From NCBI RefSeq assembly GCF_003991155.1, contig NZ_CP031293.1: a DNA stretch of 64,000 bases; one strand, written 5' to 3'. The position numbers and the translations under genes are program-made. Shown piece by piece: positions 819-39,730 of this stretch. The notes beneath the pieces are model-generated. The model was given only the letters and a program-made list of their open reading frames with translations. It made no database searches and had not been told where the DNA came from. This DNA is from Escherichia coli (GTDB lineage: Bacteria; Pseudomonadota; Gammaproteobacteria; Enterobacterales; Enterobacteriaceae). The first letter of the stretch is position 1; every line of letters begins with the position of its first letter.

Positions 819-2750
819 TCAAATGGGGCGGATACTTTCTTCATCCAGCTCCGCATCGAAGAACCGACGCAGGGTCTGAATATTATTATCCGCAATAATG
901 GACTCGCGCGCCTGCGCAAGTTTTTCTTCGTATATCGCCTGACGCCACTCCAGCGGCGTACGCACCGCGGGATTATCATCTTCAACGATAGTCAGTTCAA
1001 CCGTTGAACCTTTTAACGTGCTCAACGCTTCAGCCAGTTTTTGCTGTGCACCGCGGTTGTTCAAATGCCGCTGAGAGGAGCGCAAATGCAGACATACTGC
1101 GTTGTCGCTCTCCTCTTTCCAGGCATTTAAGGCCACCTGTTCGACCAGTTTTGGTAGCGAAAGTTGACTCACCTGTGCCGCCCACGCGTCGCGCTCAATG
1201 GCTTCTGCCGCCAGCTTCGCCGCCAGTTCCGGCGTTTTTTCATGTTCCAGCGCTTTTTTCAGCGCCTTCGGCGTGGCGACCACTTCTTTTTGCTGCATCA
1301 CTGGAGTGGTAGCCTTCCAGCGATACGCTTCTTTTTTGGCTGGCGCTTTTTCCAGCGCCGATGGCACCGGACGCGCCTGAACGCGATCGGTGACCGAAGC
1401 CAGTCTTTCCAGCGCAGCGTTATTCACCGGCCGCGCGCGGGTAGCGGCTGCCGGTTCACTCTTTTTTGCTTTGGTTGCTCCCTGCACGCGCTGCAACTGC
1501 TGGCGCGCCGCCAGCACCTGGCTGGTGGTTTCCGGGAGCGGTACAGTCGGTGCCTGCTGCGGCGCTGATTGCGGTTGCGGCGGCACCTGGGTTGGCGTCA
1601 TTACTGCCGTTGGCGCGACGGGCGCAAAGGACTGGCGTGGCACTTCTGGCTCAGGCAGAGGCATACGTGGATGGAACGCCAGCGCGCGCAGCAGCGTCAT
1701 CTCAACGCCCATGCGGCGGTCCGGCGCATACGGTAATTCTTTGCGACCAATCAACAGCGTCTGATAGTAAAGCTGAATATCCGTCGGCGGTATGGTGCGC
1801 GCCAGTTCACGCATCCGCAGCTCAATGGCGGCCATGTCGTTGCCAAGTGCAGCAGGCGAAAGTTGTACCATCGCAATACGATGCAACAGGCCGAGCATTT
1901 CCACCAGCAACGCTTCCCACTCGATACCACGGGCAGCGGCTTCATTAATCAGCGCCATTACGCGCTCGCCGTTGGCCTCGACCATCGCTTCAACCAGCGA
2001 CAGCGCCTGATCGTCGTCAAGCGTACCCAGCATCGCACTGACTGCCTGGGTTGAAACCTGGCCGTCACCGCTGGCAATCGCCTGGTCGGTCAGACTTAAG
2101 GCATCTCGCAGGCTGCCTTCAGCGGCGCGCGCCAGCAATTGCAACGCCCGCGGCTCGTGAGCGATATGTTCTTCGTTGAGGATGTGCTCAAGTTGATGGC
2201 GAATTTGCTCGACATCCAGCGCCTTGAGATGAAATTGCAAACAGCGCGACAAAATCGTCACCGGCAATTTCTGTGGATCGGTCGTCGCCAGCAGAAACTT
2301 AACGTGCTCCGGCGGCTCTTCAAGGGTTTTTAACAGTGCGTTAAAGCTGTGGCGCGACAGCATATGCACTTCGTCGATCAGATAAACTTTGAAACGACCA
2401 CGCGCCGGAGCGTACTGGACGTTATCCAGCAGGTCGCGGGTATCTTCAACTTTGGTGCGCGAGGCGGCGTCGATTTCAATCAGATCGACAAAGCGCCCCT
2501 GCTCGATTTCACGACAGTTATCGCACACGCCGCACGGCGTCGCGGTAATGCCGGTTTCGCAGTTTAGCCCCTTCGCCAGCAGTCGGGCGATAGAGGTTTT
2601 TCCGACGCCACGGGTACCGGAAAAAAGATAAGCATGATGAATACGCCCTAACGACAAGCCGTTCGCCAGTGCGGTCAGCACATGTTCCTGGCCGACGACG
2701 TCAGCAAAGGTTTGTGGGCGCCATTTTCGGGCTAAGACCTGATAACTCAT
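819..2750 (-). CDS. dnaX: DNA polymerase III subunits tau/gamma
   Basis: 643-aa ORF with Walker A GTRGVGKTS and the tau C-terminal region. Contains the known internal frameshift site. Confidence 0.97.
   Translation of the reverse strand: MSYQVLARKWRPQTFADVVGQEHVLTALANGLSLGRIHHAYLFSGTRGVGKTSIARLLAKGLNCETGITATPCGVCDNCREIEQGRFVDLIEIDAASRTKVEDTRDLLDNVQYAPARGRFKVYLIDEVHMLSRHSFNALLKTLEEPPEHVKFLLATTDPQKLPVTILSRCLQFHLKALDVEQIRHQLEHILNEEHIAHEPRALQLLARAAEGSLRDALSLTDQAIASGDGQVSTQAVSAMLGTLDDDQALSLVEAMVEANGERVMALINEAAARGIEWEALLVEMLGLLHRIAMVQLSPAALGNDMAAIELRMRELARTIPPTDIQLYYQTLLIGRKELPYAPDRRMGVEMTLLRALAFHPRMPLPEPEVPRQSFAPVAPTAVMTPTQVPPQPQSAPQQAPTVPLPETTSQVLAARQQLQRVQGATKAKKSEPAAATRARPVNNAALERLASVTDRVQARPVPSALEKAPAKKEAYRWKATTPVMQQKEVVATPKALKKALEHEKTPELAAKLAAEAIERDAWAAQVSQLSLPKLVEQVALNAWKEESDNAVCLHLRSSQRHLNNRGAQQKLAEALSTLKGSTVELTIVEDDNPAVRTPLEWRQAIYEEKLAQARESIIADNNIQTLRRFFDAELDEESIRPI
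1427..1467 (-). promoter_or_regulatory. dnaX: dnaX programmed -1 ribosomal frameshift cassette: slippery heptamer A-AAA-AAG (1461-1467) plus downstream GC-rich stem-loop (1427-1454); gamma stop UGA at 1456-1458 in the -1 frame
   Basis: Plus strand shows CTTTTTT at 1461-1467 (minus strand A AAA AAG encoding the AKK of ...GATKAKKSEP...). It is followed on the minus strand by the palindrome CCGGCAGCCGCUACCCGCGCGCGGCCGG. The -1 frame reads AAA AAA GAG UGA. Confidence 0.9.
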
Positions 2751-2878: not shown

Positions 2879-3430
2879 TTAATGGCCCGGGAACGGGACA
2901 AGGCTGTAGCTGGTAATGCCCTGTTTTTCGAGACGCTGTTCGCCGCCGAGATCGAACAGGTTGATAATGAACGCAGCGTCAGCCACTTCACCACCCAGAC
3001 GACGGATCAGTTTAACGGTCGCTTCGATAGTGCCGCCGGTTGCCAGCAGATCGTCCACCACCAGAACTTTGTCGCCCGGTTTGATGGCATCAACGTGGAT
3101 CTCCAGCTGATCGGTGCCGTATTCCAGGTCGTAAGTTTCACTGATGGTTTCACGCGGCAGTTTGCCCGGTTTACGGACCGGTACAAAGCCAACGCCCAGA
3201 CCCAGAGCTACCGGAGCGCCAAACAAGAAGCCACGCGCTTCGGTGCCGACAACTTTGGTAATGCCCGCATTTTTGTAACGCTCAACCAGCAAGTCGATGC
3301 TGAGAGCGTAAGCTTTCGGGTCTTCCAGTAAGCTGGTGACATCGCGGAAAAGAATGCCGGGTTTTGGGTAGTCCTGAATGCTTTTGATGCTATTTTTGAG
3401 ATACTCAAGCTGCTGTGCAGTCGCGGTCAT
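2879..3430 (-). CDS. apt: Adenine phosphoribosyltransferase
   Basis: ORF 2879..3484; canonical start [16 protein letters not shown] at 3428-3430; PRPP-binding motif [13 protein letters not shown]. Confidence 0.95.
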
Positions 3431-18280: not shown

Positions 18281-18394
18281 GGGTGGGGGCCCTGCCAGCT
18301 ACATCCCGGCACACGCGTCATCTGCCTTGGCTGCTTCCTTCCGGACCTGACCTGGTAAACAGAGTAGCGTTGCGGGAGAACCAACAGAGCCCCC
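18281..18394 (-). ncRNA. ffs: 4.5S RNA (signal recognition particle RNA)
   Basis: Reverse complement of 18281-18394 reads GGGGGCUCUGUUGGUUCUCCCGCAACGCUACUCUGUUUACCAGGUCAGGUCCGGAAGGAAGCAGCCAAGGCAGAUGACGCGUGUGCCGGGAUGUAGCUGGCAGGGCCCCCACCC, matching 4.5S RNA from memory. Exact ends are +/- 2 nt. Confidence 0.93.
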
Positions 18395-33611: not shown

Positions 33612-35966
33612 CTATTTTGCAGTCACAACCTGCATGCCAGACGGTTCATTTTGCAGCGCCAGAGTCAGAACTTCCTCAATGCGTTTCACAGGATGAATAT
33701 CCAGATCGGCAATTACGTTGTCAGGAATCTCTTCCAGATCGCGTTTATTTTCGAACGGAATTAACACTGTTTTAATCCCGCCGCGATGCGCTGCCAGTAG
33801 TTTTTCTTTCAAACCACCGATAGGCAGTACCTGACCACGCAGAGTGATCTCACCGGTCATTGCCACATCGGCACGAACCGGGTTACCGGTCAGGCAAGAA
33901 ACCAGCGCGGTGCACATAGCAATACCGGCACTCGGACCATCTTTCGGCGTCGCACCTTCCGGTACGTGGACGTGGATGTCGCGTTTTTCATAAAAATCAG
34001 GGTTGATCCCCAGTTTTTCCGCACGCGCACGAACCACCGTTAACGCCGCCTGAATGGACTCCTGCATCACTTCGCCAAGCGATCCGGTATAGGTCAGTTT
34101 GCCTTTACCCGGAACGCACGCGGTTTCAATGGTCAGCAAGTCACCGCCCACTTCCGTCCACGCCAGACCAGTTACCTGACCGACACGGTTTTCGTTATCC
34201 GCGCGACCATAGTCGAAACGCTGAACACCGAGATAGTCATGCAGGTTATCGCCGTTAATTTCGATATGTTTTAATGACTTATCGAGCAGTAACTGCTTAA
34301 CCGCTTTGCGACACAGTTTGGAGATTTCACGCTCCAGACCACGCACGCCCGCCTCACGGGTGTAGTAACGAATAATGCCGATAATGGCGCTATCGTCGAC
34401 GGTCAGCTCACCTTTTTTCAGTGCATTACGTTCAATCTGCTTCGGCAGCAGGTGACGTTTGGCGATGTTCAGTTTTTCATCTTCGGTATAACCGGAGAGG
34501 CGAATCACTTCCATACGATCCAGCAGCGGTGCCGGAATGTTCATGGAGTTCGACGTCGCGACAAACATCACGTCGCTAAGGTCGTAATCCACTTCCAGGT
34601 AGTGGTCGCTGAACGCTACGTTCTGCTCTGGATCCAGCACTTCAAGCAGTGCGGAAGCCGGATCGCCTCGCATGTCAGAAGACATTTTGTCGATCTCATC
34701 GAGCAGGAACAGCGGGTTTTTCACGCCCACTTTCGCCATTTTCTGGATCAGTTTACCCGGCATAGAACCGATGTAAGTACGGCGGTGACCACGGATTTCC
34801 GCTTCATCACGCACGCCGCCCAGCGCCATACGGACATATTTACGCCCGGTGGCTTTGGCGATGGACTGCCCCAGGGACGTTTTACCTACCCCCGGTGGCC
34901 CTACCAGGCAGAGGATCGGTCCCTTGATTTTGTTGACACGGCTTTGAACCGCAAGATACTCAAGGATGCGATCTTTCACGCGCTCCAGACCATAATGGTC
35001 GGTATCAAGGATTTCCTGCGCCTGACGCAGGTCTTTTTTGACCTTGCTACGCGCATTCCACGGTACCTGTACCATCCAGTCGATATAACCACGCACTACG
35101 GTCGCTTCTGCCGACATCGGAGACATCATTTTCAGCTTCTGCAACTCTGCTTCCGCTTTCTCTTTTGCCTCTTTCGGCATTTTCGCCGCGTCGATTTTGC
35201 GCTTCAGGGCTTCGTTTTCGTCCGGCGCGTCGTCCATTTCACCGAGTTCTTTCTGAATAGCTTTCATTTGCTCGTTCAGATAGTACTCACGCTGGGATTT
35301 CTCCATCTGCTTTTTAACACGGTTGCGAATGCGTTTCTCAACCTGCAGCAGATCGATTTCCGATTCCATCATTGCCATCAGATATTCCAGACGTTCGTTA
35401 ACGTCGGACATCTCCAGAACGGACTGTTTGTCAGCCAGTTTCAGCGGCATATGTGCAGCAATGGTATCCGCCAGACGCGCCGGATCGTCGATGCTATTCA
35501 GCGACGTCAGCACTTCTGGTGGAATTTTTTTGTTCAGCTTGATGTAGCCTTCGAACTGGCTGATTGCAGTACGCACCAGCACTTCCTGTTCCCGCTCATC
35601 AATGGTCGGCGACTCCAGATACTCCGCCTTCGCAGAAAAGTGTTCGCCATTGTCAGAGAGCGCAGAAATACGCGCGCGCTGTAACCCCTCGACCAGCACT
35701 TTGACGGTGCCGTCAGGCAGTTTCAGCATCTGCAATATAGAGGCCACGGTCCCGACGGTGAAAAGATCGTTTACACCCGGCTCATCCGTTGAAGCTTCTT
35801 TCTGCGCGACCAGCATAATTTTTTTATCATGGTCCATCGCCGCTTCCAGACAACGGATAGATTTTTCCCGCCCGACAAATAAGGGGATGACCATGTGCGG
35901 ATAAACCACCACATCGCGCAGCGGCAATACGGGGATTTCAATGCGTTCAGAACGCTCAGGATTCAT
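33612..35966 (-). CDS. lon: ATP-dependent protease Lon
   Basis: ORF 33612..36011; canonical start [37 protein letters not shown] at 35964-35966 (784 aa); Walker [10 protein letters not shown]; catalytic S in PKDGPSAG. Confidence 0.96.
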
Positions 35967-36153
35967 AGAGCTCTCTCTTAGTTTAATTTCCGCCAGGTAA
36001 TCAGATGACACGACTGTGCTTCACGCCATCTATTAACATGTACGTCAGTATATGGGGATGTTTCCCCCACATTCAACGCCGAGAATAGAGGAAAAATTAA
36101 AGGGGAGATAAAATCCCCCCTTTTTGGTTAACTAATTGTATGGGAATGGTTAA

Positions 36154-37428
36154 TTATTCACCAGATGCCTGTTGCGCTTCCGGCTTGCCATAAATCAGCA
36201 ACGGCTTGCTTTGACCATCAATTACCGATTCGTCGATAACCACTTTTTCGACGTCTTCCATGGACGGCAGATCGTACATGGTATCGAGCAGTGCGGCTTC
36301 TACGATGGAACGCAGGCCACGGGCACCGGTTTTACGCGCCATCGCTTTCTTAGCGATAGCATCCAGCGCCTCGTCACGGAATTCCAGATCCACGCCTTCC
36401 AGATTAAACAGCGCCTGATACTGCTTGGTCAGGGCGTTTTTCGGCTCTTTGAGGATCTGAATCAGAGCTTCTTCGCTCAGTTCATTCAACGTTGCGACAA
36501 CCGGCAGACGACCAATGAACTCAGGGATCAGACCAAACTTGATCAGATCTTCCGGTTCAACCTGCGCCAGCAGTTCACCTTCGCTTGCTTTGTCGGACTT
36601 CGCTTTTACCGTCGCGCCAAAACCAATGCCGGAACCGGTTTCTACACGATGGGAAATCACTTTATCCAGACCGGCAAACGCACCGCCACAGATAAACAGG
36701 ATCTTAGAGGTATCAACCTGCAAGAATTCCTGCTGCGGATGTTTACGCCCACCTTGCGGCGGAACAGCAGCTACCGTACCTTCGATCAGTTTTAACAGTG
36801 CCTGCTGTACGCCTTCACCGGAAACGTCTCGGGTAATGGACGGGTTGTCTGACTTACGAGAAATCTTGTCAATTTCATCGATGTAGACAATCCCGCGCTG
36901 CGCTTTCTGTACGTCGTAATCGCACTTCTGCAACAGCTTCTGAATGATGTTTTCAACGTCTTCGCCCACATAACCGGCTTCGGTCAGCGTGGTTGCGTCA
37001 GCCATGGTGAACGGAACGTCCAGCAGGCGCGCCAGCGTTTCGGCCAGCAGCGTTTTACCGGAACCGGTCGGACCGATCAGCAGAATGTTACTTTTGCCCA
37101 ACTCGACGCCATTGCTGGTATCTCCGTTGCGCAGACGTTTGTAGTGGTTGTATACCGCGACCGCCAGCACTTTTTTCGCCTGTTCCTGACCGATAACGTA
37201 ATCGTCCAGGTGGTTGCGAATTTCATGCGGCGTCGGTAGCGCACTGCGTTCACGATGCGGTGCAACTTCTTTAATCTCTTCGCGAATGATGTCGTTACAT
37301 AAATCAACACATTCGTCGCAGATATACACGGATGGACCGGCAATCAGCTTGCGCACTTCATGCTGGCTTTTGCCGCAAAAAGAGCAATACAGCAATTTGC
37401 CTGAGCCATCTTTGCGTTTATCTGTCAT
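36154..37428 (-). CDS. clpX: ATP-dependent Clp protease ATP-binding subunit ClpX
   Basis: 424-aa [47 protein letters not shown] (zinc-binding domain); Walker A GPTGSGKT. Confidence 0.97.
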
Positions 37429-38390: not shown

Positions 38391-38422
38391 TTGTGCGAAT
38401 TTAGCGCGTTATGCTGCGTAAA

Positions 38423-39730
<1,308 letters not shown>

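Follow-up and report, generated by a model that had tools for sequence, protein, structure and literature searches.

Conserved bases of the sraA small RNA gene of Escherichia coli coincide with the lon promoter and the clpX terminator

Does the short spacer between clpX and lon in Escherichia coli hold a small RNA gene, and, if so, is the RNA itself under selection or are its bases kept by the elements of the neighboring genes with which it shares them? An initial annotation of the DNA analyzed here (the window, a stretch of 64,000 nucleotides from the E. coli chromosome), made from the letters alone, had proposed, with limited certainty, that a small RNA, SraA, was mapped between these two genes, and it had placed the RNA somewhere in 36012-36153, an interval that it described as about 140 bp long, devoid of open reading frames (ORFs) and also home to the lon heat-shock promoter. 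The clpP, clpX and lon genes all lie on the minus strand of the window, and the features that frame the question are the following.

33612-35966, minus strand: lon coding sequence; the ATG at 35966-35964 is the true start (MNPERSE...) and corresponds to 458888, where lon begins in K-12
36154-37428, minus strand: clpX coding sequence, an ORF of 424 amino acids with its stop codon at 36154-36156, named clpX in matching RefSeq genomes, which also name lon
36038-36133, plus strand: match to the Rfam family RF02029 (sraA), 106.7 bits, E = 6e-17, covering model positions 1-95 of 95
36070-36126, plus strand: sraA in its 57-nt database version, equal to the complement of NC_000913.3 458728-458784 and to the upper-case part of the cloned sequence

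The presence of SraA between clpX and lon was confirmed, with an RF02029 match that falls wholly inside 36012-36153 at roughly twice the cut-off (gathering score of 56 bits for a model of 95 positions) and that is antisense to both clpX and lon. The left edge of that interval did not hold, since the lon ATG sits at 35966 and the clpX-lon spacer thus occupies 35967-36153, or 187 bp; the misplacement arose because the mechanically called lon ORF extends 45 nt past the ATG, to a GTG at 36011. The K-12 counterpart of the spacer (458701-458887, where the K-12 coordinate in NC_000913.3 is 494854 minus the window coordinate) has the same length, and every base of the spacer is identical to that of MG1655. 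Over the broader region 35900-36250, identity was 100% to several non-K-12 isolates and 99.4% to K-12. The mechanical extension of the lon ORF (35967-36011) also masked a conserved part of the lon leader.

The locus is securely identified as sraA. The SraA clone sequence given in the supplement of Bak et al. 2015 (PMC4606813) aligns to the interval, with the cloned form at 36070-36126 on the plus strand, and a review (PMC3384567) tabulates SraA (psrA3/t15; psrA/t15) between clpX and lon. Compared with SraA RF02029 of E. coli K-12, the locus, strand and sequence are the same and there is no difference, which makes it the same gene, one described in 2001 and already catalogued, and in that respect an ordinary find. 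Published lengths for the RNA disagree, at 57 nt in the database, 95 nt in Rfam, ~120 nt by northern blot and 158 nt in a Klebsiella annotation; the SraA entry in the table of Bak et al. gives ~120 nt, with the size citing Argaman 2001, and a function listed as unknown, and Hfq binding appears in the same table as “ND” (PMC4606813). The MG1655 RefSeq record (NC_000913.3 458701-458887, corresponding to 3202-3388 of our comparison sequence L001) carries no sraA feature and does annotate ffs and other ncRNAs. EcoCyc-based sRNA lists of 2025 still carry sraA, and the gene is not mentioned in the supplements of PMC12306157, PMC12266141 and PMC4161252. A search of 35800-36400 for other Rfam families at E-values up to 1 returned chance-level matches only (DapZ, L20 leader, leuA-Halobacteria).

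On the opposite strand, the same bases carry a predicted sigma-32 heat-shock promoter upstream of lon.

36071-36076, minus strand: predicted lon sigma-32 -35 hexamer, TTGAAT
36050-36057, minus strand: predicted lon sigma-32 -10 element, CCCCATAT
36040-36046, minus strand: approximate lon transcription start, as estimated from the -10 spacing
36054-36068, both strands: palindrome GGGGATGTTTCCCCC, between and across the promoter elements, and the 5' hairpin of the sraA model according to the Rfam structure line

The sigma-32 consensus is CTTGAAA-N13-15-CCCCATNT, and the lon promoter has this layout, with a TTGAA-type -35 and a -10 like CCCCATNT separated by 13-15 nt (here TTGAAT, 13 nt and CCCCATAT), placed ~85 nt upstream of the lon ATG. 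The heat-shock promoter that the initial annotation had put in this interval is thereby supported, its elements being present in the window and invariant across 106 Enterobacterales spacers. A sigma-70-like match (TTGAAT-18-TATACT, with its -10 at 36052-36047) overlaps the sigma-32 promoter.

The palindrome within this promoter is the known IS186 hot spot; it fits the IS186 target form, a G-run, 6-7 nt and a C-run, and a passage in PMC3045373 that cites SaiSree 2001 names the lon promoter as an IS186 hot spot. In one comparison sequence (L122, 2650-2690), an IS186 end is joined at ~36067, after ...GTTTCCCC, and the identical lon-promoter::IS186 junction was present in 56 of 5426 complete E. 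coli genomes, mostly B/BL21 together with some clinical isolates and K-12 derivatives. This junction explains essentially all of the genomes in which the clpX-lon spacer is interrupted. One junction case is a 129-kb plasmid record that carries both the junction and lon.

Toward clpX, the sraA match runs into a hairpin that can be read in both directions.

36099-36123, both strands: two-way intrinsic terminator hairpin, with a G+C-rich stem and, on each strand, a U-run after it

Read on the minus strand, this hairpin is AAAGGGGGGAU-UUU-AUCUCCCCUUU followed by a U-run, and it ends clpX; read on the plus strand, it is GGGGAGAU-AAA-AUCCCCCC followed by UUUUUGG, which is the 3' hairpin of the sraA model. 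Terminator-like sites on both strands numbered 6 against 0.6 expected in shuffles, and the stem is retained in the 106 spacers, with GC to AT covariation in 13 of them. E. coli and 31 other species have one stem position at which the clpX sense forms a G.U pair and the sraA sense is left with an A.C mismatch; across the alignment, G.U asymmetry gave no strand bias for the terminator (52 versus 51 species). The hairpin resembles bidirectional intrinsic terminators in having a G+C-rich stem between an A-run and a U-run, so that a hairpin and U tail form both ways, but it differs from them in that the second direction ends only a short antisense transcript, with no convergent gene, and in that the E. 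coli stem is perfect only in the clpX direction.

Evolutionarily, the spacer could be followed well beyond E. coli. We retrieved spacers with a pattern of the first 13 lon codons, which is independent of the spacer sequence, from 120 Enterobacterales genomes, extracted 114 clpX-lon spacers and aligned the 106 distinct ones, the window's own included. Their length is strikingly constant (176-224 bp in most), and mean identity to E. coli in the 106 spacers falls from 1.00 in the -35 and 0.99 in the -10 (over 36048-36057) through 0.88 in the 3' part of the lon leader, 0.79 in the terminator stem-loop, 0.62 in the promoter spacer and 0.54 in the start region to 0.47 in the linker from the terminator to the -35 (36077-36090) and 0.45 in the leader hairpin. 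Conservation reaches 90% or more at 31 positions of the sraA match, and 30 of these 31 lie in the terminator, the T-run, the -35 or the -10, with the last adjoining the -35; the conserved bases of SraA coincide with the promoter hexamers and the terminator. Of 15 representative Enterobacterales genera, 11 gave an RF02029 score that exceeded the cut-off, each time antisense to lon, a breadth that the lon promoter and the clpX terminator alone would yield.

Features that would belong to SraA alone proved harder to find. Structurally, the 5' hairpin has a GGGGG arm only in E. coli and E. albertii; it is reduced to GGG in Salmonella, Citrobacter and Enterobacter and to GG in Klebsiella, and is missing in Yersinia, Pantoea, Photorhabdus and others. 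Of the 106 spacers, 24-79 keep Watson-Crick bases, depending on which of the four core pairs is considered. In the sraA sense, the promoter segment folds with a mean z of -0.54 (3% of species below -2), and its hairpin shows no significant strand bias in G.U asymmetry (31 versus 65 species, p = 0.13). No structure on the sRNA strand was found to be backed by covariation across the spacers, the 5' hairpin being weakly paired and the 3' hairpin, conserved but with no strand preference, being the clpX terminator. Nor did the 106 spacers reveal a conserved single-stranded seed in SraA, as the linker at 36077-36090, which would be single-stranded in the RNA, is its least conserved part. In E. coli itself, the plus-strand RNA folds ambiguously (z = -2.08), because its G- and C-runs can mispair, whereas the minus-strand RNA folds cleanly into two hairpins (z = -3.72). 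A scan of the plus strand for a sigma-70 promoter of sraA returned none at threshold, and a lenient scan yielded a single weak -10, TAACAT (36034-36039), with a -35 matching at 3 of 6 positions. The -10-like hexamers of the plus strand (TAACAT, TATAAC, TAATAT) are kept within Enterobacteriaceae and not beyond, and the bases of TAACAT double as the 5' end of the lon leader.

Coding capacity was also considered. That the interval lacks an ORF, as first annotated, is correct at a length of 60 amino acids and fails below it, where a 32-amino-acid minus-strand ORF and two short plus-strand ORFs occur, none of them conserved. The 32-amino-acid ORF (35978-36076, minus strand) was rejected as a gene, since its initial TTG belongs to the -35 hexamer and precedes the estimated lon start, and the region is rich in indels; a plus-strand small protein was likewise rejected, the ORFs from 36038 and 36052 spanning anywhere from 1 to >40 codons across species. 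Elsewhere in the window, two long plus-strand ORFs were called mechanically, one of 410 amino acids antisense to lon (34452-35684) and one of 433 amino acids (38411-39712) antisense to a 432-amino-acid minus-strand ORF upstream of clpP, which, from the K-12 gene order, we take to be trigger factor. Both resemble the ordinary shadow ORFs that lie opposite highly expressed genes.

Downstream of the approximate lon start, the lon leader is resolved here into two segments.

36003-36033, minus strand: lon 5'UTR stem-loop, AGAUGGCGUGA...UCGUGUCAUCU, with a 12-bp stem in the minimum free energy (MFE) fold
35967-36002, minus strand: 3' part of the lon leader, CCUGGCGG and then AAACUAAGAGAGAGCUCU directly before the ATG, with many invariant columns

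Upstream of the lon ATG, the order is an invariant CCUGGCGG and then an invariant, palindromic AAGAGAGAGCUCU in the ribosome-binding region. In 25 Enterobacteriaceae, 88.7% of the cells of the stem-loop alignment are paired, with compensatory change at 9 of 11 pairs, a result reached by 0 of 500 shuffles. Across 89 distinct Enterobacterales sequences, realigned with a covariance model, pairing was 86.5% against 58.8% in shuffled and 33-44% in slid alignments, with compensatory change at all 11 of 11 pairs and double changes in 211 cells against 66 in shuffled ones, figures for pairing that are somewhat inflated because the alignment was fitted to the structure. The leader folds better in the lon sense than as its complement (71 species versus 26, p = 2.5e-7), and the constraint is therefore on the lon mRNA. 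No Rfam family covers this stem-loop within 35800-36400. Two published studies that mention lon mRNA and UTRs may bear on the leader; one deals with CsrA in Erwinia amylovora (PMC5109040), the other with RNase III and the adaptation of E. coli to stress (PMC9032294). In two Mangrovibacter spacers (L017 and L105), an extra insert of ~32 nt (ATCGCCTGTATCATGGTGGTATGAACAGGTT) lies between CCUGGCGGAAAC and the lon ribosome-binding region.

Taken together with the features above, the reading that we favor, and hold to be rather probable while well short of established, is that SraA is a by-product: transcription initiates close to the lon start, in the antisense direction or divergently, the two-way terminator sets the 3' end, and the RNA has no selection of its own. 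The spacer is a compact, well-known regulatory junction read on both strands. Its minus strand holds the clpX terminator, the lon sigma-32 promoter with the overlapping sigma-70-like one, and the start of the structured lon leader. On the plus strand, SraA would be initiated somewhere near the lon start, transcribed antisense across the lon promoter and halted at the reverse face of the clpX terminator (A-run, G+C stem, U-run), which would give it a discrete 3' end. Any effect of the RNA would then be local and spare distant targets: it would change how the lon promoter is occupied or act on transcripts that read through from clpX into lon. Published data agree with this reading, among them the unchanged level in a Klebsiella hfq mutant, the lack of effect on overexpression, the even expression across nutrient conditions and a mouse phenotype of a Salmonella sraA deletion, seen in a pool, that was not reproduced singly. 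A promoter symmetry model, said to have been put forward by Warman et al. in 2021, reportedly accounts for divergent transcripts from bacterial bidirectional promoters, and SraA may be likened to such transcripts as a short non-coding RNA back-to-back with an mRNA promoter. By the same analogy, the A/T-rich -10 region of lon (TATACT, with ATATGG on the other strand) could be read both ways, but the plus-strand hexamers here are poor matches. Several observations run counter to the by-product reading. Weak conservation outside the overlapping elements is no proof of functionlessness, since a cis-antisense RNA needs no seed of its own, its sequence being fixed by what it overlaps; a plus-strand -10-like hexamer is kept within Enterobacteriaceae; the two loop-proximal pairs of the 5' hairpin are still possible in the sraA sense, as G-C or G.U, in ~90% of species; and SraA has been reported to be induced early in Yersinia ruckeri biofilm formation, and sraA to be flagged in a Salmonella Tn-seq screen.

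The counterpart in which the same RNA is functional, a cis-antisense regulator that lowers or tunes Lon synthesis by pairing or by head-on transcription across the promoter, strikes us as unlikely. With a 3' end at ~36126, the ~120 nt of the northern blot and the 158 nt of the Klebsiella annotation, both in excess of 57 nt, would reach into the lon leader, and a ~120-nt form would begin near 36005 and be able to pair with the initial ~38 nt of the lon mRNA and with clpX-lon read-through RNA, its 5' part being antisense to the leader stem-loop at 36003-36033. The hexamer kept in Enterobacteriaceae is in keeping with this, as are the unstable or stress-related phenotypes that follow deletion or interruption of sraA: an E. 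coli sraA deletion strain behaved erratically, and the Salmonella Tn-seq screen flagged the gene. These phenotypes, however, cannot be told apart from the effects of a damaged lon promoter or clpX terminator, because they involve the same bases; as sraA, the lon promoter, the IS186 hot spot and the clpX terminator share ~100 bases, an sraA deletion, a transposon hit or an IS186 insertion alters lon or clpX expression as well, and one group designed its lon deletion expressly to spare SraA. Against a cis-antisense role there are also the lack of a recognizable plus-strand promoter upstream of 36005 and the expression of SraA, which is flat across conditions (RNA-seq detected it in all nutrient conditions with no significant differences), whereas lon is heat-inducible. 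Moreover, the leader hairpin in the lon sense contains many G.U pairs (~19% of cells); selection there is on the lon mRNA and not on its complement. A lower SraA level has been described in a ydgT mutant.

Two further readings place the RNA elsewhere, in its targets or in its strand. It is very improbable that the northern-blot RNA came from the minus strand, as a clpX 3'UTR fragment that ends at the clpX terminator or as a short lon leader transcript, with the plus-strand assignment an artefact of the promoter-plus-terminator prediction of 2001. The better minus-strand fold, the terminator stem that is perfect in the clpX sense only, the failure to find a plus-strand promoter and the K-12 RefSeq record that shows other ncRNAs without sraA would all agree with such an origin, but the published clone and the Rfam model are both in the plus sense, and the sRNA lists of 2025 keep sraA with RNA-seq detection, a point that bears on strand only if the reads were strand-specific. 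G.U asymmetry does not assign the strand of the RNA, showing bias only for the lon leader and none for the terminator or the promoter hairpin. Least credible of all, in our view, is that SraA acts in trans by pairing with distant mRNAs, as do most Sra/Ryb RNAs of the same screens. RyhB/SraI, ArcZ/SraH and MicA/SraD are Hfq-dependent trans-acting sRNAs from those 2001 screens, and SraA, like them, is intergenic and small and has a terminator hairpin that ends in a U tail; in outline it is sRNA-like, with its 5' hairpin followed by unpaired bases and then by the terminator hairpin, and RF02029 is found in 11 of 15 representative Enterobacterales. It differs from the three in having no conserved single-stranded seed, no Hfq dependence in Klebsiella and no known target: the unpaired stretch is the least conserved (mean identity 0.47), the lon promoter and the clpX terminator account for the breadth of RF02029, the SraA level was unchanged in a Klebsiella hfq mutant (-1.02-fold), overexpression had no effect in a screen of biofilm and motility, and 25 years have brought no report of a target.

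The finding itself changes little, as a catalogued sRNA gene and a textbook heat-shock promoter have been re-identified; it does call for caution, since phenotypes attributed to SraA cannot be taken at face value. A bolder, two-part proposal can be put forward only tentatively, and we regard it as possible and somewhat doubtful: that RF02029 is in effect the lon sigma-32 promoter and the clpX terminator seen from the reverse strand, with SraA not a gene under selection and in need of another label, and that the truly constrained RNA of the spacer is an apparently undescribed element in the lon leader, made up of the stem-loop and the invariant CCUGGCGG and ribosome-binding region after it. Such an element, if real, may act on how much Lon is made or on how stable the mRNA is, and the longer forms of SraA would be antisense to it. 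The stem-loop is worth a separate look, as Lon levels matter for stress tolerance, for persistence and for protein production strains. Elsewhere in the window, Rfam matches above the gathering score were found for the dnaX ribosomal frameshifting element (1422-1486, minus strand, 96.8 bits) and for the small SRP (4.5S) RNA (18290-18386, minus strand, 68.1 bits).
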